Counted from the first letter of the stretch, positions 22,247-57,879 are shown. The stretch: 64,000 nt of DNA from a virus (IMGVR_UViG_3300028393_004061:14189-78188), one strand, 5' to 3'. Notes: a model not told the origin generated them from the sequence alone. Translations and numbers: made by a program.

Positions 22247-22645
22247 TTGTCTTTTTTAAAAATTTATAATGGCGAAGAAGAAACTAATGTTTCAACTGAA
22301 GTGTTTAATGTTCCAAACAACAATTCAAACAAAATGGTTGGAACTTCTAAAAGTGTAATCGATACTTCGAAAGAAATTGATCGTACTCAAAGCAAGGTAA
22401 ATAATGCTCGTGTCGATTTTGTTGGAGAGCATGTGATTTTAGAGCCATTCGTAAAAAATGAATGTGAATATGAGACACAACAAGTTGCAGAAAATAAATG
22501 TGAGATGCAACAAGTTGTAGAAAATGAATCATGCCTTAAAAAAGACATTGAAGAATTCTTTGAGTGGAGTCTTAAAATTCAACAAGAAAAAAAAGATAAT
22601 GGTTTAATGAAAAAAATCACATCTTTTTTTTCTTGTGTAGTTTAA
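22247..22645 (+). CDS. Hypothetical protein with a short internal repeat (CE-x-QQV-x-EN)
   Basis: AAGGAG SD; the repeat is visible at DNA level. Confidence 0.6.
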   Translation: MSFLKIYNGEEETNVSTEVFNVPNNNSNKMVGTSKSVIDTSKEIDRTQSKVNNARVDFVGEHVILEPFVKNECEYETQQVAENKCEMQQVVENESCLKKDIEEFFEWSLKIQQEKKDNGLMKKITSFFSCVV

Positions 22646-23133
22646 AGCTTGTTGAATACTAGGCTGCTGTAATCGCTTCCACCAGTTTTAAGAATGTATC
22701 CTTTATCTGGTAAGGTTCCAGCCATATCTTCTTCTGCTTTTCCTGTCAGTTCAAAAAAGCGATTTATTTCTCTTCTGACACTTTCAGAAACTTTTTTAGC
22801 TGCTTCATCTGCATCCATGGTTTCGCCCATGAAATCGGCAAACATTTTGTCTATATTGAGTCCATAAGCTTTTCCAAAAGGCTGTGTCTCTTCTGCATTT
22901 TGAATTCGGAATGCCATAATCTTTCCTCTTGGATATATTCTTATGCCTTCAAATGAAAAGTTCTCATTTGGTGCTTTGACAAACAAATAAGGATCTCCAT
23001 CATTAAACAATTCTTTAACTTCTAACTTTTGACTGCCAGATGTTAAAATTTTAGATATCAAGCTTAGATGTTCTCTATCTTCTCTCTCTTTGTGATTTAT
23101 AAATTCATTGAATAACAACATATCATTCTCCAT
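22642..23133 (-). CDS. Hypothetical protein, N-terminal FNEFI tag
   Basis: Start revised to ATG 23133, just after the upstream stop; co-transcribed with the two upstream genes. Confidence 0.7.
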   Translation of the reverse strand: MENDMLLFNEFINHKEREDREHLSLISKILTSGSQKLEVKELFNDGDPYLFVKAPNENFSFEGIRIYPRGKIMAFRIQNAEETQPFGKAYGLNIDKMFADFMGETMDADEAAKKVSESVRREINRFFELTGKAEEDMAGTLPDKGYILKTGGSDYSSLVFNKL

Positions 23134-23140
23134 AATTTGG

Positions 23141-24466
23141 TTAGCAAACACGCAAGAGACATTCGCTTGCACTAGGAACACATCTCATTAAGACTCTTAG
23201 GTCGCTTGGATTTCCGTTATATGGAATTTCTTGCCACAACAACCCAGTAAATGAAGATGATGCTTCTTTTAGTATTTGTTGCGATGCTGTCAGGTACAAA
23301 ATACCATCAATTCTTTCCATGAAATCATTTTCTTCTATGACAGGCTTTCCATCTTTGTCTAATGATCCTGTATTCTTCAAATAGACAACTTTCATATCAA
23401 CTGCTGGAAGAATCTTACCATCATCATCAATCATGGCTTCTGAATTTTGAGAAAGTATGGTTTTTACCAATAGCTTTCCTTCGGTATAAGCATTTCGAAG
23501 TGATGTGCCTAAATCCCAGCCAATAGAATTTATAGTTCCATCTTTAGAAACAACATGAATTATAAATGCTCTTTTCTTAAATGTATTGCTAATACTTTCC
23601 ATAACAATTCTTCTTCTTAGAACATCTCTTTCTTCTGGACTACCTTCTTCTAGTCTCTTAATTTCTGGTTCGGATAAGTACTTTTCTGGATCTTCTTCTT
23701 TTAAGCACCATTTTCCAATTTCAACTCTTCCCCATTTGTCATTAAATCTTGTTGAAATTCTAATGGAATAATCTTTTTCGTTGTAGATAAGATCTTCTGT
23801 ATTTGCTCCACTTCCAACTTGAACCGCACCAATGAGTGATGATATAAATTTTCTATGCATATCACCTTTAGCACCAAGCAAACCTTTTATTTTTATAAAT
23901 ACATTGTTTAATTCTGGCATTGTTTGCAATGTAGAATTAATGTGAGCAGCCAAAGAACTTGCTGGACTATTTTGATCTAATTCGCCCTTGGTTAATTTTC
24001 TTATTTCTTTAGCAGCCTTATCAATGTTTGCATTTTGTCTTAAAAACAAAATTTGAAGATTGTCTTCAACAAATTTACGAGGATATGATTCAAGATCACG
24101 ATCACGAATTTGATGAATCAGATCAATTAGCTTGTTTACATCATTCTTGGTTGATTCTCTGAAGAATGTATCTTGCCATTCTTCAAATGCCATATCTTTT
24201 TCTTCTTTTGGCATATCGGGAGATTGGGGATCTTGCGATACATCTGGGATTTCCGTATCTTTTTCAATTCCTTTTCCCTGAGTTGGGGAATCTTTAGCCA
24301 TACTAACATTATCTGCTGGAGGATTATTAGGATCTGTGGCATTATTTGTAGTTGGTTGCTCTTGGGCAGGTGGAACTCCTAATCCTACTTGTGGAGGGCC
24401 ACCTGATGGATTAACATTTGGATCACCAACTTCATTCAACCATTCTTCGATTGCGATATTATACAT
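23141..24466 (-). CDS. Hypothetical protein (Pro/acidic disordered N-terminus), possible head-associated protein
   Basis: 441-aa ORF with N-terminal IEEWLNE tag; AAGGA SD. Confidence 0.75.
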   Translation of the reverse strand: MYNIAIEEWLNEVGDPNVNPSGGPPQVGLGVPPAQEQPTTNNATDPNNPPADNVSMAKDSPTQGKGIEKDTEIPDVSQDPQSPDMPKEEKDMAFEEWQDTFFRESTKNDVNKLIDLIHQIRDRDLESYPRKFVEDNLQILFLRQNANIDKAAKEIRKLTKGELDQNSPASSLAAHINSTLQTMPELNNVFIKIKGLLGAKGDMHRKFISSLIGAVQVGSGANTEDLIYNEKDYSIRISTRFNDKWGRVEIGKWCLKEEDPEKYLSEPEIKRLEEGSPEERDVLRRRIVMESISNTFKKRAFIIHVVSKDGTINSIGWDLGTSLRNAYTEGKLLVKTILSQNSEAMIDDDGKILPAVDMKVVYLKNTGSLDKDGKPVIEENDFMERIDGILYLTASQQILKEASSSFTGLLWQEIPYNGNPSDLRVLMRCVPSASECLLRVC

Positions 24467-24968
24467 TTTGTTCCTTTTTATTCTTCGCCTTATTCACAGC
24501 CTCAATCAATGCTCTACGGGAACCAGTTTCACTAATGTTAATTGTGTTATTTTGATTAGCTGCTAAGTATTTAGGGAATGTGTCTTTATCTTTTAACTTT
24601 ACTCTTGTCATTAAATCCGCAACTTTTGACATTTTGTCTGTCATATCTGATTTTATTTTAACAAGATTTACAAGTGCCTCTTTGCTTGAGCTTGTTGCGT
24701 CTCCCTCATTGATAACCATTTCTGCCATAGTATCTATAAATCCAGCAACCTGTTGTCTATCTTCTCTGATACATCCTAAAATTTCAGAGTATATATCAAC
24801 AAGCTGATCATCGGAAACAATATTACTTGGTTCCATTTCAGGAAGTTGATTGCCGACACTTACATTCATTTTTGGCATAAGGTGTTGAAGATTTTGTTCT
24901 TCAATAATGTCAATTGTCGATAATTCTTCCAAATTTTCAATTTCTTCAGTAATGTCTTTGGTCATCAT
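24459..24968 (-). CDS. Hypothetical helical protein
   Basis: 169-aa ORF overlapping the next gene's start. Confidence 0.7.
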   Translation of the reverse strand: MMTKDITEEIENLEELSTIDIIEEQNLQHLMPKMNVSVGNQLPEMEPSNIVSDDQLVDIYSEILGCIREDRQQVAGFIDTMAEMVINEGDATSSSKEALVNLVKIKSDMTDKMSKVADLMTRVKLKDKDTFPKYLAANQNNTINISETGSRRALIEAVNKAKNKKEQNV

Positions 24969-25391: not shown

Positions 25392-26864
25392 ATGATGAAA
25401 AATAAATTTGCTAATTATATTGCGTATAGAGAACAGAATGAAGACAAGCCAAATAACAATGTATTGTCTAAAATAAAACTTAAAAAGAATGATGGTTCTA
25501 ATGACTTTTTACCATTCTCAGTATCGAAATCATCAAGGCCAAATCTTAGGATTTTGCTTAAGGCTTTTGATATAAGCGATCAAGTTTCTCTTGGCTATAC
25601 AACTATTGAAAAAAATAAAGGCGAAGTAGAGCCAACTCTTAAAAAGAAAGTTATTTATCTTACTGGTGGTGCCGTAAGAGATCACTTGAAAAATAAAACT
25701 CCAAAAAACTACAATCTCGTCACCAATGCTACGGCTAGTGAAATTAAATTAATATTAAAGCACCCAGATAATAGATTTATTGAAATAGCACCACAAAAAC
25801 CAGAAAAAGCATCACTTGAAAAGTACAATCGATTACCAGAAGCATCTGAAAAAAATAAAATGTTTTATGCTTCGAGATGGGATAAAAGCGGAAAAGAAAT
25901 TGAATTCACAATTGTAATCAATGATGAAAAGTTTAATTTGGCAACCATGAGCAAGGCATCTAAAAGTGGAATGGTAGAACCAGAATCGGCAGATAGTACT
26001 GATTCTATTGAAGATGATGCTCACAATAGAGACTTTACAATTAATTCTCTTTACTTGCCTTTGAATAACTCAGATGGAGATAATACAGACTTAATTGATA
26101 TGTATGGTGGCGCACATCACCTTAAAAACAATCAGATTGTTAGCGTAAATGATGATTTCGAATCCAGAGTAAACGAAGATCCAAGTACTGCACTTCGATA
26201 TATTCGAATGATATCAAAATTTGGAGATTCTGATAGACCTTCCAAAAAACATATAAGTATCATCAAGAAAAATGATAAATTATTTGATCTTCCAAAAGAT
26301 GTTTTGAAAAAAGAATTTTTATCTAATCTCGAAGATCCAGATATCGATACAAGAAAGTATTTAAAGTTACTTGATGGTCTTGGTATTCTACATCACATTC
26401 ATCCAGCTTCAAATTTAGATGATATGCCACCAAATCTAGTTGGTGATCGTTGGTTAACTCCAGCTTGGTTGGCAAAAGATGAAGATGCAGAAAGCCTTAA
26501 AGATATGCTTATAGATCATGGTTGGAGCAAACAAGAAGCTTCTGATATTTCACATCTTGTTAAAATGCATCAATGGGCAAAAAATAAATATGATCCTAAT
26601 ATGTTTTATGATTTAAAGAATCACAAGCATGGTATGACATCAAATAAAGTCAAAGAATGGATGAAGATGAGCAATTTCAAAGATCCTCAAGTAGCCGCCT
26701 TCTTTATGCATGATGATTCTGATTTAAAACCATATGTTGATACCAGCATGGGCAAAAAGATTAACCCAGAATATATAAATTCTCTTGGTCGCACTCCACA
26801 AGGTGATGATTTTGAAAAAACAAAAAGACATTTATCAACAAAAAGATTTATGGATAGCTATTGA
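25392..26864 (+). CDS. CCA-adding/poly(A) polymerase-fold (class II nucleotidyltransferase) protein with altered catalytic motif
   Basis: YLTGGAVRDHL, RDFTINSL and EDP..ALR motifs are present, but the catalytic DxD reads NYN. Confidence 0.85.
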   Translation: MMKNKFANYIAYREQNEDKPNNNVLSKIKLKKNDGSNDFLPFSVSKSSRPNLRILLKAFDISDQVSLGYTTIEKNKGEVEPTLKKKVIYLTGGAVRDHLKNKTPKNYNLVTNATASEIKLILKHPDNRFIEIAPQKPEKASLEKYNRLPEASEKNKMFYASRWDKSGKEIEFTIVINDEKFNLATMSKASKSGMVEPESADSTDSIEDDAHNRDFTINSLYLPLNNSDGDNTDLIDMYGGAHHLKNNQIVSVNDDFESRVNEDPSTALRYIRMISKFGDSDRPSKKHISIIKKNDKLFDLPKDVLKKEFLSNLEDPDIDTRKYLKLLDGLGILHHIHPASNLDDMPPNLVGDRWLTPAWLAKDEDAESLKDMLIDHGWSKQEASDISHLVKMHQWAKNKYDPNMFYDLKNHKHGMTSNKVKEWMKMSNFKDPQVAAFFMHDDSDLKPYVDTSMGKKINPEYINSLGRTPQGDDFEKTKRHLSTKRFMDSY

Positions 26865-26962: not shown

Positions 26963-27664
26963 ATGATAATACAATCTTTATGGATAGGAAATAATTTAAG
27001 CAGAATGGAGGTTTCATCCATAAAGTCATTTTTATCTTTAGGATATACTTATCATTTGTATTCTTATTCACATATAAATAATGTTCCCAAAGGCGTAAAA
27101 ATTTTAGATGGAAATGAAATTATAGATAGATCTGAAATTTTTACTTATAATCTTCCAGATCATCTAGGGGGCAATAGCTTTTCTGCATTTTCTAATTTTT
27201 TTAGATACAAATTACTTTATGAAAAAGGTGGCTGGTGGGTTGATACTGATGTTTATGCTTTGAGACATTTGCCTTTAAATGAATATGTTTTGGCAAAAGA
27301 AAATGAAAATAAAATTTCTTCATGTATATTAAAATTTCCTCCAAAACATAAATTTAGTAAGATTTGTTTTGAAAAATGCAAAGAGAAAAATAAAGATAAT
27401 TTAAAATGGGGAGAGACTGGACCATTATTGGTTACTGAGGTTGCCAAACAAATGAAATTAGAAACTTTTAAAGTACAAGAATTTTTTCCTATAAATTATG
27501 ATGAGATTGAAATGTTTTTTAAACCGATAAATATTCCAAGTTCTTATACGATTCATTTTTGGAATGAAATGTGGAGAAGAAAAAAAATATATAAAAATAA
27601 AGTATATGATAAAAAAACTTTGTATGAAAGACTTATTTCTACTTTTGAAACAAAACTTTTATAA
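26963..27664 (+). CDS. Glycosyltransferase, GT32/Gb3-synthase/capsular-synthesis-like
   Basis: SLWIG, FSNFFRYKLLYEKGGWWVDTDV, WGETGP and HFWN motifs. Confidence 0.85.
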   Translation: MIIQSLWIGNNLSRMEVSSIKSFLSLGYTYHLYSYSHINNVPKGVKILDGNEIIDRSEIFTYNLPDHLGGNSFSAFSNFFRYKLLYEKGGWWVDTDVYALRHLPLNEYVLAKENENKISSCILKFPPKHKFSKICFEKCKEKNKDNLKWGETGPLLVTEVAKQMKLETFKVQEFFPINYDEIEMFFKPINIPSSYTIHFWNEMWRRKKIYKNKVYDKKTLYERLISTFETKLL

Positions 27665-28213
27665 TAATAAATTTAAAAAACTTTTTTTACTTTTAATCTT
27701 TAGTAAAAAAGTATAATCTTTTGTCCACAATAAATCATAAATGTTTTGTTGAATTACACGCATGACAGCTTTTTGTACTTGTTTTTTTTGCCAGTCATCT
27801 CCAAGTAATAAACCGTCTTTTTTCAATAGCGGAAAACATTCTAGTAAATCCCAATACACGCTTTCCTCTTTGTGGCAAGCATCCAAATAAATAAAATCAA
27901 TACTTTCTTTTTTAAAATATTTTTTTATATTTATAGATTTATCTTCTATGATATTTACTCTATTCAAAAAATCATATTTAAATAAATTATTTTTAAAATA
28001 TTGTTTTGTTTTATTTGGCCATATATCAAAACAATTCAATTTTATATATTCGTTTTTTTTAAGCATAAATATGGCAGATCTTCCTTTCCAACTTCCAATT
28101 TCTACTATAGTTGATTGAAGATTGTATGAGGCTAACAATTCACTAATTACATTTTCATGTTCTTCAACCATCCAATTTTCATGTAAATCATCATATTTAT
28201 TTGTAATTGCCAT
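27659..28213 (-). CDS. Class I SAM methyltransferase (Methyltransf_24-like)
   Basis: VEIGSWKGRS, DFIYLDACH and LLGDDW. Confidence 0.85.
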   Translation of the reverse strand: MAITNKYDDLHENWMVEEHENVISELLASYNLQSTIVEIGSWKGRSAIFMLKKNEYIKLNCFDIWPNKTKQYFKNNLFKYDFLNRVNIIEDKSINIKKYFKKESIDFIYLDACHKEESVYWDLLECFPLLKKDGLLLGDDWQKKQVQKAVMRVIQQNIYDLLWTKDYTFLLKIKSKKSFLNLLL

Positions 28214-28890
28214 TATATCTCTATTTTTTTGGGCAAATGTTTTTCTATAATTTTTTTATATTTATCTAAATTCAATTTTGGAATATTGTAAATAGACTTT
28301 GTAAGTTTATCATGTTCTGTGAATGGTAAAATGTATTTATCTATCATTTTTTTATCATATGAATCTGCGTATTTATAAGAATTTTTTAAATTTATGCTAT
28401 GATATCTTATAAGCCATAAATAATTTTCTGATAAATATGGTTTTAATTTCATGTATGCAAACTCATCATGATTCCAATTCGTTATACAATTTTTCCAACC
28501 AATATTTTCTTTATGCTCACCAACTATTCCGTTGTCGCAAACAATATTTTCTGGTAATTCATCCGTAAGAAGTAATATTTTTCCAAAATCATGAAGAATT
28601 CCTGCCACAATGAATTCTTCATCAATAACTTTTTTATTTTCCATACTTTCTACAACTTGTAAAGTATGTATCCATTGATTCGTACAATAAAGTTCCTTAT
28701 CGGTAGGATCGATGCACAATGAAAGTTTTTCAATAAGACTCCATGGTTCGACTAATCCAAAAATTACATTTTTATATTTTTTGTTTAAATCTTCTATTTG
28801 ATTGGCACTTTGATTCCAATGAGCCTTTTTGATTTTTCTAGCATTGCCATCGAATTCCATCTGATTTAAATTATTGTTAGACTTTAGCAT
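28213..28890 (-). CDS. myo-Inositol oxygenase-like HD-domain di-iron enzyme
   Basis: IDPTD...HTLQVVE, GILHDFGK, WNHDEFAY, IRYHS and FTEHDKLTK match the MIOX ligand pattern. Confidence 0.8.
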   Translation of the reverse strand: MLKSNNNLNQMEFDGNARKIKKAHWNQSANQIEDLNKKYKNVIFGLVEPWSLIEKLSLCIDPTDKELYCTNQWIHTLQVVESMENKKVIDEEFIVAGILHDFGKILLLTDELPENIVCDNGIVGEHKENIGWKNCITNWNHDEFAYMKLKPYLSENYLWLIRYHSINLKNSYKYADSYDKKMIDKYILPFTEHDKLTKSIYNIPKLNLDKYKKIIEKHLPKKIEI

Positions 28891-28904
28891 TTTTTCTCTT
28901 TGAC

Positions 28905-29597
28905 TTATAAAAGAATATCTTTATATTGTTGGCCTTTAAGCCATATATCATTTTTATAATGAATAATTTTTACATTAGATGGAAAAACTTCTTTAAAATA
29001 GTAAAAATTATAAATATCAGTTGGTACTGTTAAAATTTTCAATTCATTATAATAAATTAAATCATTTCTCTGAAAATCTAAATTTAAAATAATATTTAAT
29101 GCTAATTGATCATTTTTATGTGTTTCAGACATTTTTATCCATTTAGATAAGAAGTTTATGGTTTGTTGTGTGTATTTGAAAAACATAACTCCTGCATTTA
29201 TTTTTCCCATAACGAATCTATGATCTTTTACAGGTTCATTTTTTAATTCTGATTCTCTACGAATTGTTAAACCTATGTCAAAATCTTTTTCTTTTATTTC
29301 GTTCAAAGGTTGATATAGAACTGCGTCTGCATCAAGATAGACTATTGTTTTTTTATATTCCAGCAAAGCATCAAAAATAATTTGTGGTTTATGTATAGCC
29401 TTAGATTTCCATGTGTTGTTTACATGGCAATAAAACCCATCTTTTTGAAATGTTTGATTTTTAACAATATATGACTTTCCATAACCAAGATTTCCAAGAT
29501 CATAAATAACTGGTGTGTAATTTAATTTGATTGTATTTTTAATAGACAATTCAACAATTTTTTTAAATTTTTTATTAGCAGCAGTTAATATAATCAT
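28905..29597 (-). CDS. Nucleotide-diphospho-sugar transferase (GT-A, GT77-like)
   Basis: KPQII, YLDADA, NAGVMF and NDQLALN. Confidence 0.8.
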   Translation of the reverse strand: MIILTAANKKFKKIVELSIKNTIKLNYTPVIYDLGNLGYGKSYIVKNQTFQKDGFYCHVNNTWKSKAIHKPQIIFDALLEYKKTIVYLDADAVLYQPLNEIKEKDFDIGLTIRRESELKNEPVKDHRFVMGKINAGVMFFKYTQQTINFLSKWIKMSETHKNDQLALNIILNLDFQRNDLIYYNELKILTVPTDIYNFYYFKEVFPSNVKIIHYKNDIWLKGQQYKDILL

Positions 29598-29598
29598 T

Positions 29599-30582
29599 TT
29601 ATAAATTCTTTATAAATTTTGCAAAATCATATGTTAATTTATTTATATTCCAAGATTCTATTAATTTATTTTTATTGTCTTCTAAAGTTTCATGAATATT
29701 TTCATAATTTGATAAAACCATTTCTATTTTTTGCTCCAAGTCGCAAAAATCTGGCGAACATGGAATATATCTTTTTCCATTTTCAAATATATCAATAGGA
29801 TAGCAAAAAACATGATTACTATTTGGTTTAATCAAAACTGTTTTGGTATACATAGATTGAAAATCTCTATAATTCCATTCCCCCATACCCCATGGAGATA
29901 AGCAAATTTTAGATTTATTTAATATGTCTTGATATGTTTTTTGATCAAGTGTTATTTTTCCATTTTTTTCTGCATACAAAAAAACATTATATTTTGATTT
30001 CAATTCGTTTAATTTTTTTACAACTATATTACGATGCCAATTCAATATATTTGGTTTACTTATACCATCATAACAAATATTTCCAACAAACATCACATCA
30101 TATTCTTTTTTACATGATGGCAAATTTTTATAAGATAAAAATCTATCTTGTATTGATGTTGGTATTAGACATTTAATTTTTTTTAAATTGTCACAAGATA
30201 TTTTTATATTTTGCTCTTCATTTTCACCTAATTTTGCATAATTATTTAGTAATTTGCAATGGTATCTTCCAGAATACACATCTGAATTATGCAACTTTTC
30301 ATCTCTTAAAGTTGTTGTTTTTATTATAGATAAAACATCATTTCTATCAATTGCCTCCCTAACATGTTTATGATATAATATCGAAGAATCTGCTCTCTCT
30401 ATAATAATTTTAGGTTGTTTGTTTTCAATATATTCAGGATATAATCTGCTATGTATTAGTAAAATGTCTGCATTATTTTTTGTAAAGCTTATTCCATAGT
30501 CCTCTAAATTATATTTAAGTATTGGCGAAGGCTCCGTTTTTTCTGTTCCAATATCACCCAAAATAGGATTTATTCGAATCAT
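29599..30582 (-). CDS. Glycosyltransferase, GT-B-like (paralog of 33318..34298)
   Basis: SKICLSPWGMGEWNYRDF...LIKP. Confidence 0.7.
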   Translation of the reverse strand: MIRINPILGDIGTEKTEPSPILKYNLEDYGISFTKNNADILLIHSRLYPEYIENKQPKIIIERADSSILYHKHVREAIDRNDVLSIIKTTTLRDEKLHNSDVYSGRYHCKLLNNYAKLGENEEQNIKISCDNLKKIKCLIPTSIQDRFLSYKNLPSCKKEYDVMFVGNICYDGISKPNILNWHRNIVVKKLNELKSKYNVFLYAEKNGKITLDQKTYQDILNKSKICLSPWGMGEWNYRDFQSMYTKTVLIKPNSNHVFCYPIDIFENGKRYIPCSPDFCDLEQKIEMVLSNYENIHETLEDNKNKLIESWNINKLTYDFAKFIKNL

Positions 30583-32025: not shown

Positions 32026-32033
32026 GATTTGAT

Positions 32034-33300: not shown

Positions 33301-33317
33301 AACACATAAACATTATA

Positions 33318-49191: not shown

Positions 49192-49203
49192 TCTTTTTTT
49201 TTA

Positions 49204-49941
49204 TTATTCAATTTCTGGATTAGGCATTCTTTTTCGATTATAAAATTTTCCCTTTTTATCTTTTTCATCATTTTGCTTGGATACTTTAGCTGCTAAACCA
49301 CGAGCTTGGTGTCCAGCATCATCGGGAATATCTTTCCCAGTACGAAGATAATCGAATAGAGGATGAAAAACCTTATTTTTATATCTCCATAAATCTTTAG
49401 GCATTATTTGAAGCTCACATTGCATACCATCTATATTCAAATCAATATGATACGATCCACGCCAACCAGTTTTATCTTTTTCAATTTTACCTGTTTTTGG
49501 ATTTTTAATATTTCCGACATCATCTTTAGCCTCATAACCAACAGCAGTTATGTTTTTAGGAAATAAAGGATCATGTTTAAACTTACTATTTAAAAAAGCT
49601 GTAATTTCTTTAGATTGTTCTTTGGTATCCGTTACAATTGTAGCACGAAGAATATCACCTATGCCTTCAACTCCTCTTCCTTTGTCTCTCATTTTTCTTT
49701 CAATTGAACTTTTCGACTTTATGTCCATAATAACTTCACCTTTATCGCCAACGAACCTTTTTTTTACCATATTAAGAATATCTTCAAATTTCATATATCT
49801 ATCTTTTGCCATTTCTATGGCATGATCAGCATCTTTAGGAATCTCTTTAAAAACATCATGTATTTTGTATGGTAATTTTGGTAAAACTGCATCACTTATA
49901 ACTTTTCTGTTCAACCATTCCATAAAAGATAATGTCGCCAT
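49204..49941 (-). CDS. RelA/SpoT-like small alarmone synthetase / pyrophosphokinase
   Basis: KSKSSIERK, DILRATI, GWRGSYH and ELQI correspond to Syn1-4; start revised to MATLSFMEWL. Confidence 0.75.
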   Translation of the reverse strand: MATLSFMEWLNRKVISDAVLPKLPYKIHDVFKEIPKDADHAIEMAKDRYMKFEDILNMVKKRFVGDKGEVIMDIKSKSSIERKMRDKGRGVEGIGDILRATIVTDTKEQSKEITAFLNSKFKHDPLFPKNITAVGYEAKDDVGNIKNPKTGKIEKDKTGWRGSYHIDLNIDGMQCELQIMPKDLWRYKNKVFHPLFDYLRTGKDIPDDAGHQARGLAAKVSKQNDEKDKKGKFYNRKRMPNPEIE

Positions 49942-50033
49942 TATAATCTCCATTTAAACATTTAATTTATATATTATGGTTATAAACATTTTTAATTTCA
50001 TATATAATACATTAATCTTTTATAAGAGGTGTT

Positions 50034-50210
50034 ATGTTTTACGAAGATCAAAAAAAAATCAGTGACGAAAATTGGCTCAATAGTCTAAAAAGACAAATGG
50101 GTCATAAAGAATATATCGATGTACCAGAAAAAAAATCAGGTAAAAAACCAATAATTGAAAATAAAAATAGACAAGATGAAGTAAAGAAAAAATCCATATA
50201 CGATTGGTAA
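50034..50210 (+). CDS. 58-aa protein, N-terminally paralogous to 50380 (absent from the ORF track)
   Basis: MFYEDQKKISDENWLNSLKRQMG vs MYYKDQTKLSEKEWMESVMSQMG; GAGGTG SD. Confidence 0.75.
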   Translation: MFYEDQKKISDENWLNSLKRQMGHKEYIDVPEKKSGKKPIIENKNRQDEVKKKSIYDW

Positions 50211-50379
50211 AAAGTCTAAGGCATAAGCCCCCCAATATTAAAAATTCATGCCTAACTGTAAAAATTGTGAAAATAATCTCTCCAATTTGCAAACAATTTT
50301 GACATTAAGATTATATCTTGAAATTTTATATGATCATTCAATACATAATATAACCTAAAGCAACACAATAAGGATTACA

Positions 50380-50796
50380 ATGTACTATAAAGATCAAACT
50401 AAATTGTCGGAAAAAGAATGGATGGAAAGCGTCATGAGTCAAATGGGATTCAAGACAATAAATGAAGATCCAGCACCTTACCAAAACCAAGGATCTATAG
50501 AGCCACAAGAATATACTCCAAAAAAAATGAAGCCAAGATATGTTATGCCTAAAACAGATCCTATTGTAGCGTTATCAGAAAAATCTGCTTCTATTATGAA
50601 AATTTTAAATAAATCAAAAAATACTATGCCAACAGATATTTACGATTTGTCTTCTTTACTTTCTAATATTAAAGGCATGTTTGAATTAATTCCAACTCTT
50701 AAAATAGAAATAGAAAAAACGAAACAAGAAATAAACTCTTCTCAACAACAACAATCGAACAGCCAAATGTCTGGTATGTTTGATGCAAAGAAATAA
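50380..50796 (+). CDS. Hypothetical protein
   Basis: AAGGA SD; the frame stays open past the TAA to 50907. Confidence 0.75.
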   Translation: MYYKDQTKLSEKEWMESVMSQMGFKTINEDPAPYQNQGSIEPQEYTPKKMKPRYVMPKTDPIVALSEKSASIMKILNKSKNTMPTDIYDLSSLLSNIKGMFELIPTLKIEIEKTKQEINSSQQQQSNSQMSGMFDAKK

Positions 50797-50937
50797 AAAC
50801 CTTCGATTTCGAAACCAACAATGAATGTAAAAACTTTGGATCAGAATGACGATCCTCATGATTCTGTGAAACCTTATGATACTACCGCTTGGCAAGACTG
50901 GGAGTAGAAAATTTTGGACATTAAATTACAAAACAAT

Positions 50938-51333
50938 ATGAAATTCAAGGAATTCTTTGAATATGACATATCGAATATGATCAAAGGCATAGCCAGAAAA
51001 TTCAGCTATGGAACCTATTGTGGACCTAATAAAATAGGAGATATCGTTTCCAAGCCATGCAATATACATGACAACGGAGAAAAATTAAAACCACCCAAAG
51101 ATAAACTTGATTCACTTTGCATGAAACATGATATAGATTATTGTAAGTGCGGAGATGATTGGACTGCTGGACTTATTGGTAACAAAGGATCTGAATGCAG
51201 CAGAGAAGCAGACAAGAACTTTATCGATAAGTTAAATGCAAATATGGAATCAATGGGCAGTAAAGAAAGATTTGTAGCTAACCTAATATTGAGCTACTTC
51301 AAAGTACATGGGAATCTACAAAAAATGATTTAA
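50938..51333 (+). CDS. Phospholipase A2-like protein
   Basis: YGTYCGP Ca-loop, DSLCMKHDIDY catalytic His-Asp and ADKNF; start revised to ATG 50938. Confidence 0.8.
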   Translation: MKFKEFFEYDISNMIKGIARKFSYGTYCGPNKIGDIVSKPCNIHDNGEKLKPPKDKLDSLCMKHDIDYCKCGDDWTAGLIGNKGSECSREADKNFIDKLNANMESMGSKERFVANLILSYFKVHGNLQKMI

Positions 51334-51388
51334 AAAAAACTTATTTATATTTTGCATATTCTTATTTAATAGTGACATGTTGTTTACC

Positions 51389-51610
51389 TTAAGTTTTTTT
51401 TTCTTTAATGTTGCCTGTGTTTTCAATATCAAAAGTAGGATTTGGCAAAAATCTAAACTGAAGACTACGAAAATGACGAAGTTTACCATCAACATTAGAA
51501 ACTATAGCAAATACATCATTTGAAAACACACCTCCATCCCTAACATAAACAAGCATTCCATAACCTAAAGAAGTTTCTACAGGCATTGGATTTCTGAATT
51601 CGTAAATCAT
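51389..51610 (-). CDS. Small phage hypothetical protein
   Basis: Coupled to the upstream HNH gene. Confidence 0.65.
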   Translation of the reverse strand: MIYEFRNPMPVETSLGYGMLVYVRDGGVFSNDVFAIVSNVDGKLRHFRSLQFRFLPNPTFDIENTGNIKEKKT

Positions 51611-52143
51611 TTAATTCTCCCGAATTCACCATGGATTTTCTTTCGTGCTTTTATAGAGACTTTGATAGCATCTTCTAGTTTTTCATGAAGTCCAAAGTTA
51701 CATAATTTTCCATTAAGTCTTATTCTGACTTCCCATTTACCGCTTGCTTTATGCCAAAAGATTCCTTTGTGACCAGAAGTGTTATTTTTTGGTACTTTGC
51801 TGTTGTGCATATTTTGAGAATGGGTAGATTCTCTAAGGTTATCAGGGTTATTGTTTAATGTATCGCCATCTTCATGATCAACTTCTTTATCTGGATCTAA
51901 TTCATTTTGTTTAAGGAGCAATATAATGCGATGAACTATCAGGTCATATCTTTTGCCATTATAAGGAACTTTGATGACCCAATATTTTTTTCCAGTAAGA
52001 ATTCCATTTTCTTTATAAGCCTTCAAAGTGCCAGCTATTTTGGATTTTCTTATCCAAGTTAGACCAGAAGGTGAAGTTGGATTTATTTTAAGGATAGATT
52101 GGATATAGGATAGAGGAATGCCTTTTATAGAATGTAGTTTCAT
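51607..52143 (-). CDS. HNH endonuclease with AP2 domain (copy 1)
   Basis: HR...DHEDGDTLNNNPDNLR...QN plus NNTSGHKGIFWH...W (AP2). Confidence 0.9.
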   Translation of the reverse strand: MKLHSIKGIPLSYIQSILKINPTSPSGLTWIRKSKIAGTLKAYKENGILTGKKYWVIKVPYNGKRYDLIVHRIILLLKQNELDPDKEVDHEDGDTLNNNPDNLRESTHSQNMHNSKVPKNNTSGHKGIFWHKASGKWEVRIRLNGKLCNFGLHEKLEDAIKVSIKARKKIHGEFGRIK

Positions 52144-52289
52144 TTTGTTTTTAGGTTCTGGATTTTTTGTTCTATCGTTTCCATTATCTCTTTGTAGAGA
52201 GGATAATCTTCATTTTTAATTTGTTGTAATATTAAAACTATATGAGGAGTAATTGCAAAGTTCTCAATTAAAGATTCAGAAGTTATCAT
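52140..52289 (-). CDS. 49-aa hypothetical protein between HNH copies (absent from the ORF track)
   Basis: MITSESLIENF...QNLKTK; TAATG and ATGA overlaps at the two ends. Confidence 0.65.
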   Translation of the reverse strand: MITSESLIENFAITPHIVLILQQIKNEDYPLYKEIMETIEQKIQNLKTK

Positions 52290-52837
52290 TATTCATCTCT
52301 CCCAAATTTACCATGAAGTTTCTTTCTTGCTTCTATAGCCACCTTGATTGCATCTTCTAGATTGACATAAAGGCCAAAGTTATAGGATTTACCATTTGCT
52401 CTTATCGTAACTTTCCATTTGCCACTGCCTTTATGCCAATGAACGCCTTTATGACCAGAAGTATTATTTTTTCTTAGTTTGGAGTTTTGACCATTTTGTG
52501 AAATAGTACATTCTCTAAGGTTTTCAATTTTATTGTTTAATGAATTGTTATCTTCATGATCAATACATTTACCTTTTGTAAGATAACCATGGTGTAAAAA
52601 AAAAATAATTCTACTGCATCTTAACTTATATTCTTTTCCAAGATACATAATACCAGCAATCCATGTTTGATATCCACTTTTGGCATTTGTCTTTTTATGT
52701 CCAGCATGGTTGTTATTAAATAAAAATCTTTTATCTTTTCTAGGAAGCCAAGTAAGTCCAGAAGGTGAATCTGGATCTATCTTAAGGATAGATTGAAGAT
52801 ACTTTAAAGGTATGCTTTGTATGGAATGGAGTTTCAT
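52289..52837 (-). CDS. HNH endonuclease with AP2 domain (copy 2)
   Basis: DHEDNNSLNNKIENLR plus AP2 motif. Confidence 0.9.
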   Translation of the reverse strand: MKLHSIQSIPLKYLQSILKIDPDSPSGLTWLPRKDKRFLFNNNHAGHKKTNAKSGYQTWIAGIMYLGKEYKLRCSRIIFFLHHGYLTKGKCIDHEDNNSLNNKIENLRECTISQNGQNSKLRKNNTSGHKGVHWHKGSGKWKVTIRANGKSYNFGLYVNLEDAIKVAIEARKKLHGKFGRDE

Positions 52838-53391
52838 TTATCTCTCCCAAATTCACCATGAAGTTTCTTTCTATTTTCTACAGCAACTTTGATTGCATCT
52901 TCTAGTTTTTCATAAATGCCAAAATAATATCTTTTTTTGTTTATTGATATTCTTACCATCCATTTTTTACAACTTTTATTCCAAACAACATCTGCGTGAC
53001 CAGAATTATTTTTCTTTGATAATCCCTTGTTTTGTTGATTTTCCCAAGAAAACAATTCTCTTAGATTACTAGGATTATTGTTAAGCGAATTGCGATCTAT
53101 ATGATCTATTTCTTTTCCTTCGGTCAAATAACCATTATGTAAAAAAAATACGACTCTGCTCGATATAAAATAATACAATTTTTTGTTGTATATAATTGCT
53201 AATCTAAAGCATTTATATCCATCTTTTTTTGAAATTTGCTTCCACCCAGCCATTTTATTTGCAAATCTGCCATTCCATTTAGTATCTTTTCTAAGAAGCC
53301 AAGTTAAACCAGAAGGACTTTTAGAATCTATTTTGACAATAGATTGAATATATTTTAAAGGTATACCTTTTATGGATTTTAGTTTTTTCAT
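52834..53391 (-). CDS. HNH endonuclease with AP2 domain (copy 3)
   Basis: DHIDRNSLNNNPSNLR plus AP2 motif; start revised by paralogy (MKKLKSIKGIP). Confidence 0.9.
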   Translation of the reverse strand: MKKLKSIKGIPLKYIQSIVKIDSKSPSGLTWLLRKDTKWNGRFANKMAGWKQISKKDGYKCFRLAIIYNKKLYYFISSRVVFFLHNGYLTEGKEIDHIDRNSLNNNPSNLRELFSWENQQNKGLSKKNNSGHADVVWNKSCKKWMVRISINKKRYYFGIYEKLEDAIKVAVENRKKLHGEFGRDK

Positions 53392-53574
53392 TATTTTATC
53401 AATTTTAAAATCGCATTGAGCAGCAATAACAAATTGCCTATTCGGAATCCCCACCTTATGGTAATTCCTCATCCCAATGCGATAAGTGAAAATAACAAAC
53501 TTGAAATTTATTGTCAACACATCTTGCACAACAAAAAAAAATATGTTTCACTAACACCAGAAAGGAATTTTAAA

Positions 53575-53850
53575 ATGATATACCTGTACTCTGGCTTTAG
53601 CTTGCTAATTGGACTTTACTCCCTACCACTCATGATTGATGTCATAAAATCAAAACATGAAACATCACACCTAAGCACAATAAAGAAATTTCTCTACTTC
53701 TTATCGTGCTTCCTTTTCTTGACATTCCCATTCGTAAACTTCGCAGCTTTCCTAGAAGGAGTATTACTACAATCATCATACTCGTCTTATGTCTCAGGAA
53801 TCTATGGGATAATCTTTATATGCTTTTCTTTCATCGATCTTGAAAAATAA
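53575..53850 (+). CDS. Small multi-pass membrane protein
   Basis: AAGGA SD before ATG 53575; three hydrophobic segments. Confidence 0.6.
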   Translation: MIYLYSGFSLLIGLYSLPLMIDVIKSKHETSHLSTIKKFLYFLSCFLFLTFPFVNFAAFLEGVLLQSSYSSYVSGIYGIIFICFSFIDLEK

Positions 53851-53853
53851 AAT

Positions 53854-54369
53854 ATGCCAATAACTCTCGGAACTCTTTCTACCATAAATCAAGACTGTAT
53901 TGTATATTTTCCAAACGCACAAATAACTGTTGGAAACTATTCTGGAATAGCACGAAGAGTTACCTTTCTTTGCGGTGGGCCTATTGACCATGCATCTATA
54001 CACCACCCAACTGTAAGTAACTTTCGATTCAAATCACATTACCCAAATTCCAACTACCCAATAGGAAGAGATAAAGGCCCAATCGAAATAGGATCTGATT
54101 GTTGGATAGGTACAGAATCAATGATATTTGGAGGTACTAATATTGGACATGGATCTATTGTAGGTGCCAGATCAGTTGTAACCAAAGATGTTCCTCCTTT
54201 CGCCATCGTAGCTGGAAATCCCGCTAAAATTATCAGATATAGATTCGAAAAACCAATAATAGATCAATTAATGCAAATACAATGGTGGGATTGGCCTAAA
54301 GAAAAAGTTGAACAAAATATAAATCTACTTGCAGACATAGACCTTTTTTTGAAAAAATATTCTCAATAA
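53854..54369 (+). CDS. Hexapeptide-repeat O-acetyltransferase (CatB/Vat-like XAT family)
   Basis: IGSDCWIG, VTKDVPPFAIVAGNPAKIIRYRF and WWDWP. Confidence 0.9.
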   Translation: MPITLGTLSTINQDCIVYFPNAQITVGNYSGIARRVTFLCGGPIDHASIHHPTVSNFRFKSHYPNSNYPIGRDKGPIEIGSDCWIGTESMIFGGTNIGHGSIVGARSVVTKDVPPFAIVAGNPAKIIRYRFEKPIIDQLMQIQWWDWPKEKVEQNINLLADIDLFLKKYSQ

Positions 54370-54420
54370 AAATACACTTTAGTTGATGATAAATTTTTTT
54401 ACAATAATAATACATAAAAT

Positions 54421-54588
54421 ATGGATACTTTCGAAAACGCATCACCACCACAAGAACAATCTGAAAAAGTTTTAGCTAAATGCTGGAACTGTGAGAAAAA
54501 TATACTATGTACAGAATATATTGTTTGTTGCACTGGAACAATGCTTCATTATTGCGATGTGTGCCTAAATGAAATGATAAAGGTATAA
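54421..54588 (+). CDS. 55-aa Cys-rich zinc-finger-like protein (absent from the ORF track)
   Basis: CWNC...CC...CDVC. Confidence 0.65.
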   Translation: MDTFENASPPQEQSEKVLAKCWNCEKNILCTEYIVCCTGTMLHYCDVCLNEMIKV

Positions 54589-54589
54589 T

Positions 54590-55645
54590 ATGAACTTTAA
54601 AAAATGGCTAATAAAAGAAGAAACTAATTTAGAAAATCCAGATATATGGCATGCAAAATTTCAATCAGGAATCGTCCAACACTTCCTTGGTTTCCTTCAT
54701 GATAACCATATAAACGCCATTAATCCAAATGACATGAAGTTCATCTTAGATGTCATTACTGATAACCCAAAACTCTATCCTCCATCAACTGTAGGCTCAG
54801 GCGAATTCAATAAGGAAACCGCTGCGAGGGATAGCGAAAATATTAAGGCTTTTAACAAAACTAAAGAAAAAATTGCCGAAATAATCTTCAATGCCTACAA
54901 AAGTATGACTCTAGAACAACAAAATCAATACAAGGAACTATTTGAAAATAAATCAAAATCGAATTCATTAAAATCTGCACAAGAAGAAAAAGAAAAAGAA
55001 AAAAACCATACACTTACAATGAAAGAATTGGTCAACATGAGCGACCAAGACTTTGAAGAATTCAAAAAATTAGACCCTAATAAAAAAATGATCATGATGA
55101 AAAAAACATGGCAAAAAAATGCTAACAGAGAAGAATGGAACAACTTAAAAATAGTTCATTGGGCTAGAACAAGTAATGCAATTGATATTATAACTGGAAA
55201 ACTTAAACAAAAAGAATTAAGTGCAACCTATTATCCTCCAAATCAAGATATGTCAAAGATAGGCGGAAACTATTATTCTTTTATTGGTGGATTTGTAGCA
55301 TTTGAACTAAAAGGAAATGTAACTTCTGGATTTTCCATGGATGGAGCAACAGATAATTTTCATGATCCACAAACTAATTCTAGAGTATTTGATATAGTAA
55401 AGTCAAAATCAATGGAAAAAATGGGAGGTAGAGGTTGGACTTTAAAACCTGTGTTCCTAAATGATGGTCATAATGAACTTATCATTCAAGATTATAAAAT
55501 TATAAAGTTGTTAATATATGATTCTAATTTTCATAAGAACATGACAAAACAAGAAGAGCCAGAAGAAGAAAGAAAATCATATGAATATTTAGAAAAATTA
55601 GCTAATGAACAAGGAATACCAGTCGAACATATTAAAACTTCTTAA
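54590..55645 (+). CDS. Hypothetical protein with MNFKKWLIKEE tag (possible distant ART-like C-terminal domain)
   Basis: 351-aa ORF; HW...ELS...HNELII spacing only weakly suggests an ART fold. Confidence 0.7.
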   Translation: MNFKKWLIKEETNLENPDIWHAKFQSGIVQHFLGFLHDNHINAINPNDMKFILDVITDNPKLYPPSTVGSGEFNKETAARDSENIKAFNKTKEKIAEIIFNAYKSMTLEQQNQYKELFENKSKSNSLKSAQEEKEKEKNHTLTMKELVNMSDQDFEEFKKLDPNKKMIMMKKTWQKNANREEWNNLKIVHWARTSNAIDIITGKLKQKELSATYYPPNQDMSKIGGNYYSFIGGFVAFELKGNVTSGFSMDGATDNFHDPQTNSRVFDIVKSKSMEKMGGRGWTLKPVFLNDGHNELIIQDYKIIKLLIYDSNFHKNMTKQEEPEEERKSYEYLEKLANEQGIPVEHIKTS

Positions 55646-55660
55646 AATTAAATTCTAACC

Positions 55661-55668
55661 TATAAATA
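55661..55668 (+). promoter_or_regulatory. T4-type late promoter (TATAAATA)
   Basis: Exact T4 late consensus 5 nt upstream of ATG 55674. Confidence 0.6.
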
Positions 55669-55673
55669 CCTCT

Positions 55674-56531
55674 ATGAAATTTAAAAATTGGCTACTACTG
55701 AACGAAGAAGAAACAAAGAATATTGTTCAAGGACCAATATTGCTTTATCATGCAACCTCAACAGGAGAAGATAATAAAACATTAAATTCTTTTAAAAATG
55801 AAGGTGCTAAACCTATGATGGGTGGAGGATATGGACAAGGTCGTGGACTCTATATGATGTCATTGAAAGGCGGTCCTTACAGTCATGCTAAAAAACTCGC
55901 AGCAGATAAGGTTATTGCAAATGTTAAACATGCAGGTCTTCCTATGGTCGTTTCTATTGAATTCCCATTCATAGATACTAAAGAATGGGATTTAGATCAA
56001 GAAATACATGGTGGTGAGATAATTGAATTTATTCGAAAAATTATAATGTACCAAGGCAGTAAAGGTCTTGCTCCAAAGAATACCATTAAAGTTAATACAA
56101 GTCTAGCTAATGCACCAAAAGATCAGAGTGTGTTGGCTAAAGATACTCCAGATACTGATAGTCGTTATTATCCAACTGCTATAGGCACAAGGAATAAAGA
56201 TGTTAATATCAAATGGAATCCCGGAGTCAAAAGTATGCAGTTTTTAGATAAAGATTCACGAACTATTGATGGAATTGTAAATCAATATGATGACAAAAAA
56301 GGCTATGAAGGTGAAGACGGACATAATGCTGGTAGTGGTGGAATTCTTTCGCCACTGTATCTTAAATACCAAATGGAAAATCCAGAATTTCATCATGCTC
56401 AAGAAGCAAAATTTATCCGAAATAGACTTAAAAGTAATAAAAAAGAACTTGCTATCAAATATGTAGGCAATCAAACTTTCCCAGTCAAATCAATCGAAGT
56501 ATTCAAAGATGGTCAATGGACTACTGTTTAA
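55674..56531 (+). CDS. Putative ADP-ribosyltransferase-fold protein (paralog 1)
   Basis: LYHAT...GQGRGLY resembles the H-G/A-T and G-x-G-x-Y motifs of PARP/diphtheria-toxin-like ARTs. Confidence 0.55.
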   Translation: MKFKNWLLLNEEETKNIVQGPILLYHATSTGEDNKTLNSFKNEGAKPMMGGGYGQGRGLYMMSLKGGPYSHAKKLAADKVIANVKHAGLPMVVSIEFPFIDTKEWDLDQEIHGGEIIEFIRKIIMYQGSKGLAPKNTIKVNTSLANAPKDQSVLAKDTPDTDSRYYPTAIGTRNKDVNIKWNPGVKSMQFLDKDSRTIDGIVNQYDDKKGYEGEDGHNAGSGGILSPLYLKYQMENPEFHHAQEAKFIRNRLKSNKKELAIKYVGNQTFPVKSIEVFKDGQWTTV

Positions 56532-56534
56532 AAA

Positions 56535-57407
56535 ATGAAATTTAAAAATTGGCTACTACTGAACGAAGAAGAAACAAAAAATATTGTTCAAGGACCAATA
56601 TTGCTCTATCATGGAACTTCAACAGGAGAAAATAATCAAACATTAAATTCTTTTAGAAATGAAGGTGCCAAACCTATTGGCGGAGGACATGGACAAGGTC
56701 GTGGACTCTATGTGATGTCACATAAAGATGGTGCGACAACACATGCAATAAAAGTTACGAATAAAGAAATTGATTCAAATGTTGAACATGCAGGTCTTCC
56801 TATGATTGTATCTATTGAATTCCCATCCATAGATACTAAAGAATGGGATTTAGATCAAGAAAAACATGGTGGCGAAATAATAGCCTTTATTCAAAAGTTT
56901 ATAAGACTAAATAACATACAACAAATTCAAAAAGGTATTCCTAAAACAGATACCGCTGCATTTAATACAAATCTAAGTCCAGAAGATAATGCTTATTTAG
57001 ATAAAGATACTTCTGCTGATTCTTATGACTCATCTCATGGAATGAGAAATAAAAATTTAGTTTTTAAGAATAAACGGGGTGGTCAATCTATGCAGATTTT
57101 TAATAGAGGAAAAGTTGAACCTATTGCACCTGCAACTGGAAATTTACCTGCAACTGGGCCTTTTAAAATTATGGCTGGTCCTAATGATTATGAAAGTTGG
57201 TCAAATGTCGATGCTGGTGCAATTCTTTCTCCAGCTTATCTTAGCCATCAAACACAAAATCCAGAATTTCATCATGCTCAAGAAGCAAAGTTTATTCAAA
57301 ATAAAATTAAAAATAAAAAAGATCTATACATCAAATATGTAGGCAATCAAACTTTCCCAGTCAAATCAATCGAAGTATTCAAAGATGGTCAATGGACTAC
57401 TGTTTAA
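56535..57407 (+). CDS. Putative ADP-ribosyltransferase-fold protein (paralog 2)
   Basis: LYHGT...GQGRGLY; ends near-identical to paralog 1, middle divergent. Confidence 0.55.
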   Translation: MKFKNWLLLNEEETKNIVQGPILLYHGTSTGENNQTLNSFRNEGAKPIGGGHGQGRGLYVMSHKDGATTHAIKVTNKEIDSNVEHAGLPMIVSIEFPSIDTKEWDLDQEKHGGEIIAFIQKFIRLNNIQQIQKGIPKTDTAAFNTNLSPEDNAYLDKDTSADSYDSSHGMRNKNLVFKNKRGGQSMQIFNRGKVEPIAPATGNLPATGPFKIMAGPNDYESWSNVDAGAILSPAYLSHQTQNPEFHHAQEAKFIQNKIKNKKDLYIKYVGNQTFPVKSIEVFKDGQWTTV

Positions 57408-57477
57408 AAAATGAAATTAAAATATTCTTATTTACAAAATTGCGATGTGTGCCTAAATAAAATAATAAAGGTATAAT

Positions 57478-57879
57478 ATGAAATTTAAAAATTGGCTATT
57501 AAAAGAAAATTTTGAAAACTTTCCTGAAGGGCCAAGAAAAAAATACGCAATACAAGCTAGTCTTATTTCAAAGTATGATAAAAACATATTGCTAAAAGAT
57601 GATAGTGATGAAGTTGTGGGAATAGCTTCTGTTTGGAAAGAACCAGATACAGCAAATAGTGAAGGTATTCCTGAAGGAAATTACATTAAAATAAGAAACA
57701 TGTCTGTTAAAGAAAAAGGTTTAGGCAAAAAACTATTTCAAATGATTAAAGATTATGCCAAATCTCACAATGCAGGAATTTATTTAAATAGTACTGAAGG
57801 AGCATATGATTTTTACGAAAACCAAGGAATGCATAGGGCAACTGGAGCTAATTATTATTTAACTGCCGATGAAATATAA
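57478..57879 (+). CDS. GNAT-family acetyltransferase with MKFKNWLLKE tag
   Basis: KEKGLGKKL (acetyl-CoA motif A) and AYDFYENQGM. Confidence 0.85.
   Translation: MKFKNWLLKENFENFPEGPRKKYAIQASLISKYDKNILLKDDSDEVVGIASVWKEPDTANSEGIPEGNYIKIRNMSVKEKGLGKKLFQMIKDYAKSHNAGIYLNSTEGAYDFYENQGMHRATGANYYLTADEI

Follow-up and report, generated by a model that had tools for sequence, protein, structure and literature searches.

An N-terminal tag shared by unrelated genes of a huge freshwater phage, a probable T4-type capsid-targeting sequence and recombination joint

We analyzed a window of 64,000 nucleotides, the whole stretch of DNA studied here (positions 14189-78188 of the 78,188-bp contig IMGVR_UViG_3300028393_004061). 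This low-GC (~0.30) window comes from an uncultured, T4-related huge phage of fresh water, and several unrelated genes in it begin with almost the same peptide of about ten residues. We consider it moderately probable that this N-terminal tag is a capsid-targeting sequence (CTS) of the T4 type, serving a greatly enlarged enzyme cargo, and that its DNA, often together with a promoter-like element, is at the same time a recombination joint for swapping, losing, and newly tagging cargo genes. Because the ten-residue peptide closely resembles the head-loading signal of T4, the tagged enzymes are probably packed into the head for injection.

The core of the tagged set consists of four adjacent plus-strand genes, which begin M[NK]FK[NK]WL..E and represent three protein families: one unassigned, one with a predicted ADP-ribosyltransferase (ART) fold, and one of GNAT acetyltransferases. 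The first gene (54590..55645, 351 aa) starts MNFKKWLIKEET, with the tag MNFKKWLIKEE, and scores 14.9 bits with the tag matrix described below. The second (55674..56531, 285 aa, ART fold) starts MKFKNWLLLNEEE and scores 20 bits, and the third (56535..57407, 290 aa) is its paralogue, with the same tag, 60% identity over the full length, and the repeats D2-D5. The fourth (57478..57879, 133 aa) starts MKFKNWLLKE and encodes the GNAT acetyltransferase (Pfam Acetyltransf_1, 8e-8). The bodies of the proteins from 54590, 55674, and 57478 are mutually unrelated, with no similarity detected by BLASTP. The four genes do not represent four independent events, since 55674 and 56535 are paralogous, while 54590 and 57478 share a 5′ block. 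The regular expression M[KNS]FK.[WFY][LIFM] has five matches in the six frames of the window, and all five are the first ATG of a long open reading frame (ORF). In addition, a degenerate DNA pattern has five matches in the window against 1.15 expected, a number that none of 100 shuffles reached.

How far does the tag extend beyond this locus? An exact-pattern scan of IMG/VR found it at the ORF starts of large contigs; of the 28 matches, 24 were set aside as short or internal ORFs, repeats of one 63-70-aa ORF, or small contigs. The scan yielded G001, a related 251-kb contig (estimated 50% complete). Its synteny with the window covers positions 1870-26864, with an amino-acid identity of 32-64%. 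Only one of 50,697 phage records is related, that of the complete 595-kb uncultured phage LR756511.1 (971 ORFs). The matrices were cross-trained: the one trained on G001 was applied to the window, the one trained on the window lineage was applied to G001, and both were applied to LR756511.1. The G001 matrix placed five window N-termini, those of the core set and of 49941, at or above 12 bits, as compared to one of 15,676 internal positions. The window-lineage matrix detected 12 N-termini of G001 at 10 bits or more, where ~0.4 were expected, as compared to five of 58,282 internal positions. In LR756511.1, the two matrices detected 22 N-termini where ~2 would be expected, and most of them read MKTF.[EQ]W[LM]E. 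In all three genomes, the tag is enriched at N-termini, 10- to 30-fold or more.

We assembled 92 distinct, non-redundant tags. The consensus of the tag is M-(K)-[NKTS]-F-K-[END]-[WFY]-[LI]-x(1-3)-E, in which the aromatic residue follows the Met by 5 or 6 residues, and Phe occupies position -3 in 97% of the 92 tags. G001 contains at least 26 tagged ORFs in two sub-forms, M[NKS]FK.[WFY][LIF], as in the window, and MK[TS][FY].E[WY]L..E.

The other tag-like starts in the window are of varying strength, and all nine N-termini that the original prediction had quoted are present where it had placed them. The RelA/SpoT-like nucleotidyltransferase gene (49204..49941, minus strand) starts MATLSFMEWLNRK, a long-offset form of the tag, scores 13.6 bits, and has GGAG 7 nt upstream of its ATG. 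Two genes are marginal by the matrix: that of a Cys-rich PLA2-like protein (50938..51333, plus strand), which starts MKFKEFFEYD, scores 6.8 bits, and matches the strict regular expression at its first ATG; and that of a conserved protein of ~159 aa (22642..23121, minus strand), which starts MLLFNEFINHKE, scores 6.7 bits, and has GGAGA before its ATG. Two more fail by the matrix, which alone gives them no support: that of a conserved 441-aa protein (23141..24466, minus strand; MYNIAIEEWLNE, 4.6 bits) and that of a conserved CCA-fold protein (25392..26864, plus strand; MMKNKFANYIAYRE, -0.8 bits; Pfam PolyA_pol, 1e-19). The orthologues of 23121 in G001 and LR756511.1 start MYKFFDYINQSE and MLEFKEFIDKKE, the latter scoring 13.7 bits. 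Likewise, 24466 is 57% identical to the protein encoded at G001 98743-100053, which starts MKINTLNWFNEE, and 55% identical to the LR756511.1 orthologue, which starts MTDRINLEDWLDQ, and the 25392 orthologues start MGKFQDYVLYKE (G001) and MRTTFLEFMGLKE (LR756511.1). Because the same type of start is kept in these orthologues, 23121, 24466, and 25392 are probable members of a conserved cargo set beside the gene for a gp2-like DNA end protector (20105..20641, minus strand; PHROG 429, 2e-7), as the sequence comparisons suggest. Beside the gp2-like gene of G001, we also noted a 971-aa SNF2-family helicase (101370-104285), which starts MSLFKNYVENQE, a weak tag of 7.9 bits, and has a promoter-like element abutting its ATG.

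These weaker members bear on the simplest alternative, that a few paralogues share an N-terminus and the rest is over-read from AT-rich MK.. starts. The paralogy of 55674 and 56535 agrees with it, as do the two failures and the two marginal scores just described. However, the unrelated bodies in the core set do not, the enrichment recurs in two other genomes with cross-trained matrices, and the weak members keep their starts in orthologues. Chance or simple paralogy is therefore very improbable, largely refuted by the cross-trained matrices on the window, G001, and LR756511.1 and by the separability of the tag within the ART family.

The tag is conserved among orthologues and separable from the protein that it precedes. 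All 14 full-length orthologues of 54590 (52-96% identity) keep M[NK]FK.WL..EET, and the tag is also kept by the orthologues of 55674 (40-97% identity) and of the GNAT protein (68-98% identity), one of which carries a 13-residue insert between tag and body. The substitutions within the tag are conservative at the protein level (W/F/Y, L/I/F, E/D/N), and the G001 tags differ at synonymous sites. This pattern indicates that the tag peptide is under selection. A full-library profile search with the 55674 domain gave 153 representatives, 128 of them stand-alone. In 29 of these 128, the tag stands 8-15 residues ahead of the LYHGT strand, while many others begin directly at LYHGT and some bear other leaders, such as MKLL.ENWRKYL.EE and MNWYKI.Q. 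Some orthologues (P0004, P0006-P0008) carry a zinc ribbon (CxxC...CxxC) as an insert that separates the tag from the ART domain, and the same type of domain also occurs inside proteins of 3,000-6,400 aa (P0051, P0054, P0059, P0093, and others). Since the tag is missing from many homologues of the ART domain, it is a separable module. Consistently, in the AF2 model of 55674 the tag forms a short separate helix (residues 3-10) and the domain starts at residue 17.

Next, we examined the DNA of the tag. A 69-nt shared 5′ entry at 54551..54619 (plus strand) comprises a CTAAATA-like element, an AAAGG ribosome-binding site, and the first 10 tag codons. Its second copy, 93% identical, lies before the GNAT gene at 57439..57507 (plus strand). 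This direct repeat, D6, thus places the same block of 39 upstream nt and 10 codons at 54590 and 57478. A further repeat, D1 (56436..56550, plus strand), covers the 3′ end of the ART gene and the next start; its three copies, at 100, 94, and 78% (the other two at 57312-57426 and 57840-57954), bracket the GNAT cassette. The 40 nt upstream of the tag are identical in the relatives L052, L054, and L055, and in the close relatives L053 and L055 unrelated cargo genes stand behind an identical promoter-plus-tag. Across L051-L055, the same locus holds other tagged genes, for example those starting MKKFYEFIKEKN, MKTFYEFLENKN, and MKTFNEWQNEN, and also genes for a NIF phosphatase and for a protein in which we noted an HD-type motif by eye (PKHHAEG). 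Moreover, lake metagenome contigs match the ~30-nt tag DNA alone, with flanks unlike those of the window, and some of them skip the intervening gene from tag to tag (54622->55719, 54623->55657). The duplicated 5′ entry, the cassette swaps, and these metagenome joints support, at the DNA level, the original prediction that new cargo is recruited by gaining a tag. Tag-like peptides (e.g. SFKNWLFNIENI) also occur at the extreme C-termini of some G001 ORFs (229476-229847, 133030-134313, and 142656-143222), just before the next gene, and may be scars of recombination at tags.

The upstream part of these blocks carries candidate expression signals. The sequence TATAAATA (55661-55668) ends 5 nt before the ATG of 55674, and ATAAATA (20647-20653) lies at the same spacing of 5 nt before the ATG of the gp2-like gene. 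Of 26 tagged genes in G001, 11 have an ATA[TA]A[TA]A element ending 2-9 nt before the ATG, as compared to 16 of 321 untagged ones (p = 2.7e-7). Many tagged G001 genes (L034-L046) have an ATATATA/TATAAATA element that ends 4-8 nt ahead of the ATG and no Shine-Dalgarno sequence, and a similar element lies farther upstream of several structural genes. Since the promoter-like element abuts the ATG where the Shine-Dalgarno sequence is missing, leaderless or near-leaderless mRNAs are suggested, and the tagged genes may share a possibly late, nearly leaderless transcription. The count of CTAAATA/ATAAATA in the window, with 127 loose matches in 64 kb, is uninformative by itself. A metatranscriptome run (X23) gave one 212-nt RNA contig, which covers 43 nt of a tag only, at less than 90% likeness, and is no evidence of expression. 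A host that does not use Shine-Dalgarno sequences was considered and rejected, since many window genes have AAGGAG.

Could the shared start then be a by-product, with a mobile 5′ cassette of promoter, start region, and first codons copied for good late or leaderless expression, and the encoded peptide functionless? The near-identity of the tag DNA in the window lineage, with its 39 flanking nt traveling along, is what such a cassette would produce, and so are the metagenome contigs that break and join exactly at the tag, the promoter-like elements abutting the ATG, and the many tagged genes without a Shine-Dalgarno sequence. Against this, G001 and LR756511.1 keep the peptide while the codons and upstream sequences differ. 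The conservative exchanges within the tag, the Met-to-aromatic distance of 5 or 6 in 81 of the 92 tags, the enrichment of Glu past the end of the shared DNA block, and the retention of the tag in orthologues at 40% identity likewise point to the peptide itself. We regard a functionless peptide as improbable.

What would the peptide do? The likeness to T4 begins with the head genes of the relatives. The Gp23 capsid protein is encoded in G001 (1.9e-90), LR756511.1 (5e-87), and G003, and a Peptidase_S77 prohead protease in G001 (2e-28) and LR756511.1 (7e-28). The head module of G001 also includes ORFs taken as portal-like and scaffold-like from their position and sequence only. The scaffold-like ORF has 3.8 [LI]xE per 100 aa, as compared to the genome median of 0.98, a richness that one would expect if a core like T4 gp22 were cut by a protease like gp21. 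In T4, a CTS is carried by IPII and IPIII (MKTYQEFIAE), IPI, and Alt (Mullaney and Black 1996, cited in PMC5694885). The G001 sub-form MK[TS][FY].E[WY]L..E reproduces MKTYQEFIAE almost residue for residue, and the literal T4 form MK[TS]F.E[WY]L opens nine G001 genes, beside the MNFK.WL form in the same lineages. Tagged genes of the T4 form at G001 31825, 34486, 34994, 43776, and 44127 flank the head genes. A regular expression that matches IPII and IPIII has nine sites in G001, all nine at ORF heads, six ORF heads in LR756511.1, none in the window, and three sites in T4 itself, namely IPII, IPIII, and gp61.1. The last of these (NC_000866 18966-19130), a protein of 54 aa, starts MKTFKEFIKED; it is not known to be packaged and, to our knowledge, is not listed among the head proteins.

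The end of the tag is consistent with a cleavage site. In 77 of the 92 tags, a hydrophobic-x-Glu is found within +2 to +5, as compared to ~16% of control positions, and Glu reaches 45% at +5, a position outside the matrix. At the sequence level only, the tags appear to end in a gp21-type (L/I)-x-Glu site.

Several results weigh against the interpretation of the tag as a CTS. In the T4 control, the lineage matrix gives IPII and IPIII 2.4 bits and ranks 10-11 of 261, so that it is not a general CTS detector, and the top match in T4 is gp61.1; with this weak score and gp61.1 on top, the likeness to T4 is one at the level of pattern. Unpackaged proteins, too, may have CTS-like starts. Tagged ORFs make up about 8% of those in G001, including ORFs for enzymes expected to act in the cytoplasm, which would make a very large cargo. 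The 78-kb contig of the window does not reach the head genes and has none of its own, so the protease is taken from the relatives. In the window lineage, the DNA of the tag hardly varies, so that part of the similarity reflects recent gene conversion. The promoter-like motifs are rich in A and T, as is the genome as a whole, which leaves their class and timing putative. In tblastn searches of the 50,697 phage records, the ART-fold and 24466 proteins matched nothing but LR756511.1. Of the comparison with the T4 CTS drawn in the original prediction, the T4-type head genes in relatives, the literal T4 form, and the separable N-terminal tag with its [LI]xE-like site hold, while the weak score of the T4 CTS itself goes against it.

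In our ranking, the main rival to the interpretation as a CTS is that the peptide addresses another target: a chaperone or modifying enzyme, another assembly or compartment, or, as a degron, timed proteolysis. The data establish a conserved, separable N-terminal module and not its destination, and many tagged enzymes, such as the CCA-adding enzyme, the P-loop kinase, and the NIF phosphatase, have cytoplasmic substrates. The CTS-like start of T4 gp61.1 fits this alternative as well. On the other hand, the motif agrees with the one experimentally defined tag of such a shape, in phages whose head machinery is likewise of the T4 type. Moreover, small tagged genes flank the G001 head genes, the [LI]xE preferred by the protease comes after the tag, and no alternative partner gene was seen to co-occur. 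We therefore hold another destination to be unlikely, less so than a functionless peptide.

If the tag is a CTS, we infer, by analogy with IPI-IPIII and Alt of T4, the following course for the tagged proteins. They would be produced late. The short N-terminal helix would dock each protein on the scaffolding core during prohead assembly, and the gp21-type (Peptidase_S77) prohead protease would then cut the tag off after the Glu of the hydrophobic-x-Glu. The mature proteins would remain in the head, reach the next cell along with the DNA, and act there as effectors. The cargo would have two parts: a conserved one (23121, 24466, and the CCA-fold protein of 25392), encoded beside the gp2-like gene, and a variable one at plastic loci, which in the window would include the ART-fold, GNAT, RelA/SpoT-like, and PLA2-like proteins, and in relatives a CCA-adding enzyme, the protein whose HD-type motif was noted by eye, a NIF/HAD phosphatase, and a P-loop kinase.

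The enzyme labels of the original prediction fared unevenly: the GNAT and CCA/PolyA_pol assignments stand by their Pfam matches and the ART fold is supported by modeling, while RelA_SpoT is weak and PLA2 is a language-model lead. The AF2 model of 55674 reached a pLDDT of 80.5 from an alignment of 66 sequences (43.5 from 8 sequences). Nearly all of its top-50 structural matches by VIA-align are ADP-ribosyltransferases, with Z of 5-7.6 (TreX 7.6, diphtheria toxin 7.4, PARP16 7.0, Tpt1 6.4), and the modeling thus supports an ADP-ribosyltransferase fold for 55674 and 56535. VIA-align further matched an ART-like region in the pre-ejectosome protein of cyanophage A4 (9k3a_B, Z 5.1). Across the 66 sequences of this family, D108 and E110 do not vary and H26 hardly does, and Pfam gives weak ART-PolyVal (0.019) or PARP matches for the homologues. 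With the model as query, Foldseek returned no PDB structure at E <= 0.001. No significant PDB sequence match was obtained for 49941, for 50938, or with the profiles of 55674 and 54590, and Pfam and PHROGs gave no match for 54590, 55674, 23121, 24466, and 24459. The 54590 body, without a family match, has a weak protein-atlas (language-model) lead to a DarT/PARP/Arr-like domain.

The RelA/SpoT-like protein of 49941 scores 22.4 bits against Pfam RelA_SpoT, below the cut-off of 27 (E 1.5e-4). The nearest protein-atlas clusters of the 50938 protein are Phospholip_A2_4 (score 0.93, 206 shared features); it has no Pfam match, and we noted its YCGPN and HDIDY motifs by eye. In 25392, the catalytic DxD reads NYN, with NRD for RRD and EDPST for EDxxR. 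The G001 orthologue reads NYD, and that of LR756511.1 is intact (DYD, RRD, EDQLR). From these motifs, the window protein is probably not an active nucleotidyltransferase, and as it lacks the catalytic DxD, its label as tRNA-binding in the original prediction is a guess. G001 encodes a second CCA enzyme, intact and tagged, at 123304-124536. The tagged proteins identified in relatives include this type of enzyme, the HD-type-motif protein, the NIF/HAD phosphatase, the P-loop kinase, and SNF2.

How does this tag compare with known systems? Like the T4 CTS, it occupies ~10 residues at the extreme N-terminus of unrelated carriers, broadly follows M-K-[TS]-[YF]-x-E-aromatic-[IL]-x-E, and is followed by a gp21-type [LI]xE; in addition, the lineage has T4-type Gp23 and S77 genes and a scaffold-like ORF, and its candidate cargo includes an ART-fold enzyme, comparable to Alt in T4. 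In contrast, the window form M[NK]FK.WL is one residue shorter, the system here is known from sequence alone, and each genome has ~25-40 tagged genes of many enzyme classes, as compared to the four cargo proteins of T4 (IPI-III and Alt). The hyperplastic ipI locus of the T-even phages, attributed to Repoila et al. 1994 and Comeau et al. 2007, reportedly holds variable genes behind a conserved promoter and the 5′ end encoding the CTS. That locus shares with D6, the swaps, and the joints described here a variable cargo behind a conserved 5′ block acting as a recombination site. It differs in that here there are several loci per genome, with cargo of up to 600-1,000 aa and enzymatic domains instead of small basic proteins.

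In the ejection proteins of SPN3US and phiKZ, the prohead protease removes N-terminal propeptides after a Glu-ending motif, and a role in head targeting has been proposed (PMC5694885). These systems share with ours an N-terminal propeptide with a Glu-ending cut motif on injected inner-head proteins—here, a putative cut motif on the probable cargo. Their propeptides, however, have 20 to >120 residues, with conservation noted only between two paralogues, as compared to the 10-residue consensus of the T4 type in this lineage. Injected polyvalent proteins with ART and GNAT domains have been discussed as well (PMC7824862). Such proteins and the Dar system of phage P1 resemble the candidate cargo in being enzymatic injected effectors that include ART and GNAT, and the 55674 domain too is found in proteins of 3-6.4k aa; the polyvalent domains, however, are fused in one giant injected protein, while here the genes are separate, each with a short address tag. 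Our search of the open-access literature found no huge-phage or jumbo-phage paper paired with "capsid targeting" and no paper describing this tag. By tblastn, the ART family had no match in cultured phages, and thus no virion proteome can be linked to the tag.

The remainder of the window contains T4-like baseplate wedge genes (2858-8835), an ORF of 3,538 aa (9422-20038), and an AT-rich block of ORFs (26963-42372, GC ~0.25), in which the ORF at 36555-37970 opens with a sulfatase-like motif (by eye). Two adjacent minus-strand paralogues (51607-52143 and 52289-52837) both begin MKLHSI(K/Q)(G/S)IPL.YLQSILKI. Directly upstream of 54590 lies a small zinc-ribbon gene (CWNC..., 54421-54588), which is kept in all relatives. 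A megablast search of window positions 49000-58000 against phage records gave no match, and positions 54400-58000 are present, in whole or in part, in 23 freshwater or lake runs from 17 studies.

Tentatively, and with less confidence than in the interpretation of the tag itself, we propose that a clade of huge (~500-600 kb) freshwater phages related to T4 has made the CTS a general loading system for dozens of separately encoded enzymes: ART-fold, GNAT, alarmone-synthetase-like, and PLA2-like enzymes and enzymes of RNA-end repair type (CCA-adding, HD-motif, kinase, and phosphatase), with new cargo gained by recombination at the 30-nt tag. The small internal-protein system of T4 would then be seen to extend to dozens of enzymes, which recombination could bring in by a simple route, in a phage type that its distribution marks as common in lakes. 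If the tag loads the head, the ten-residue motif would be a predictor, from sequence alone, of what uncultured huge phages inject, and the tagged genes would form a ready list of candidate counter-defense and host-takeover enzymes.

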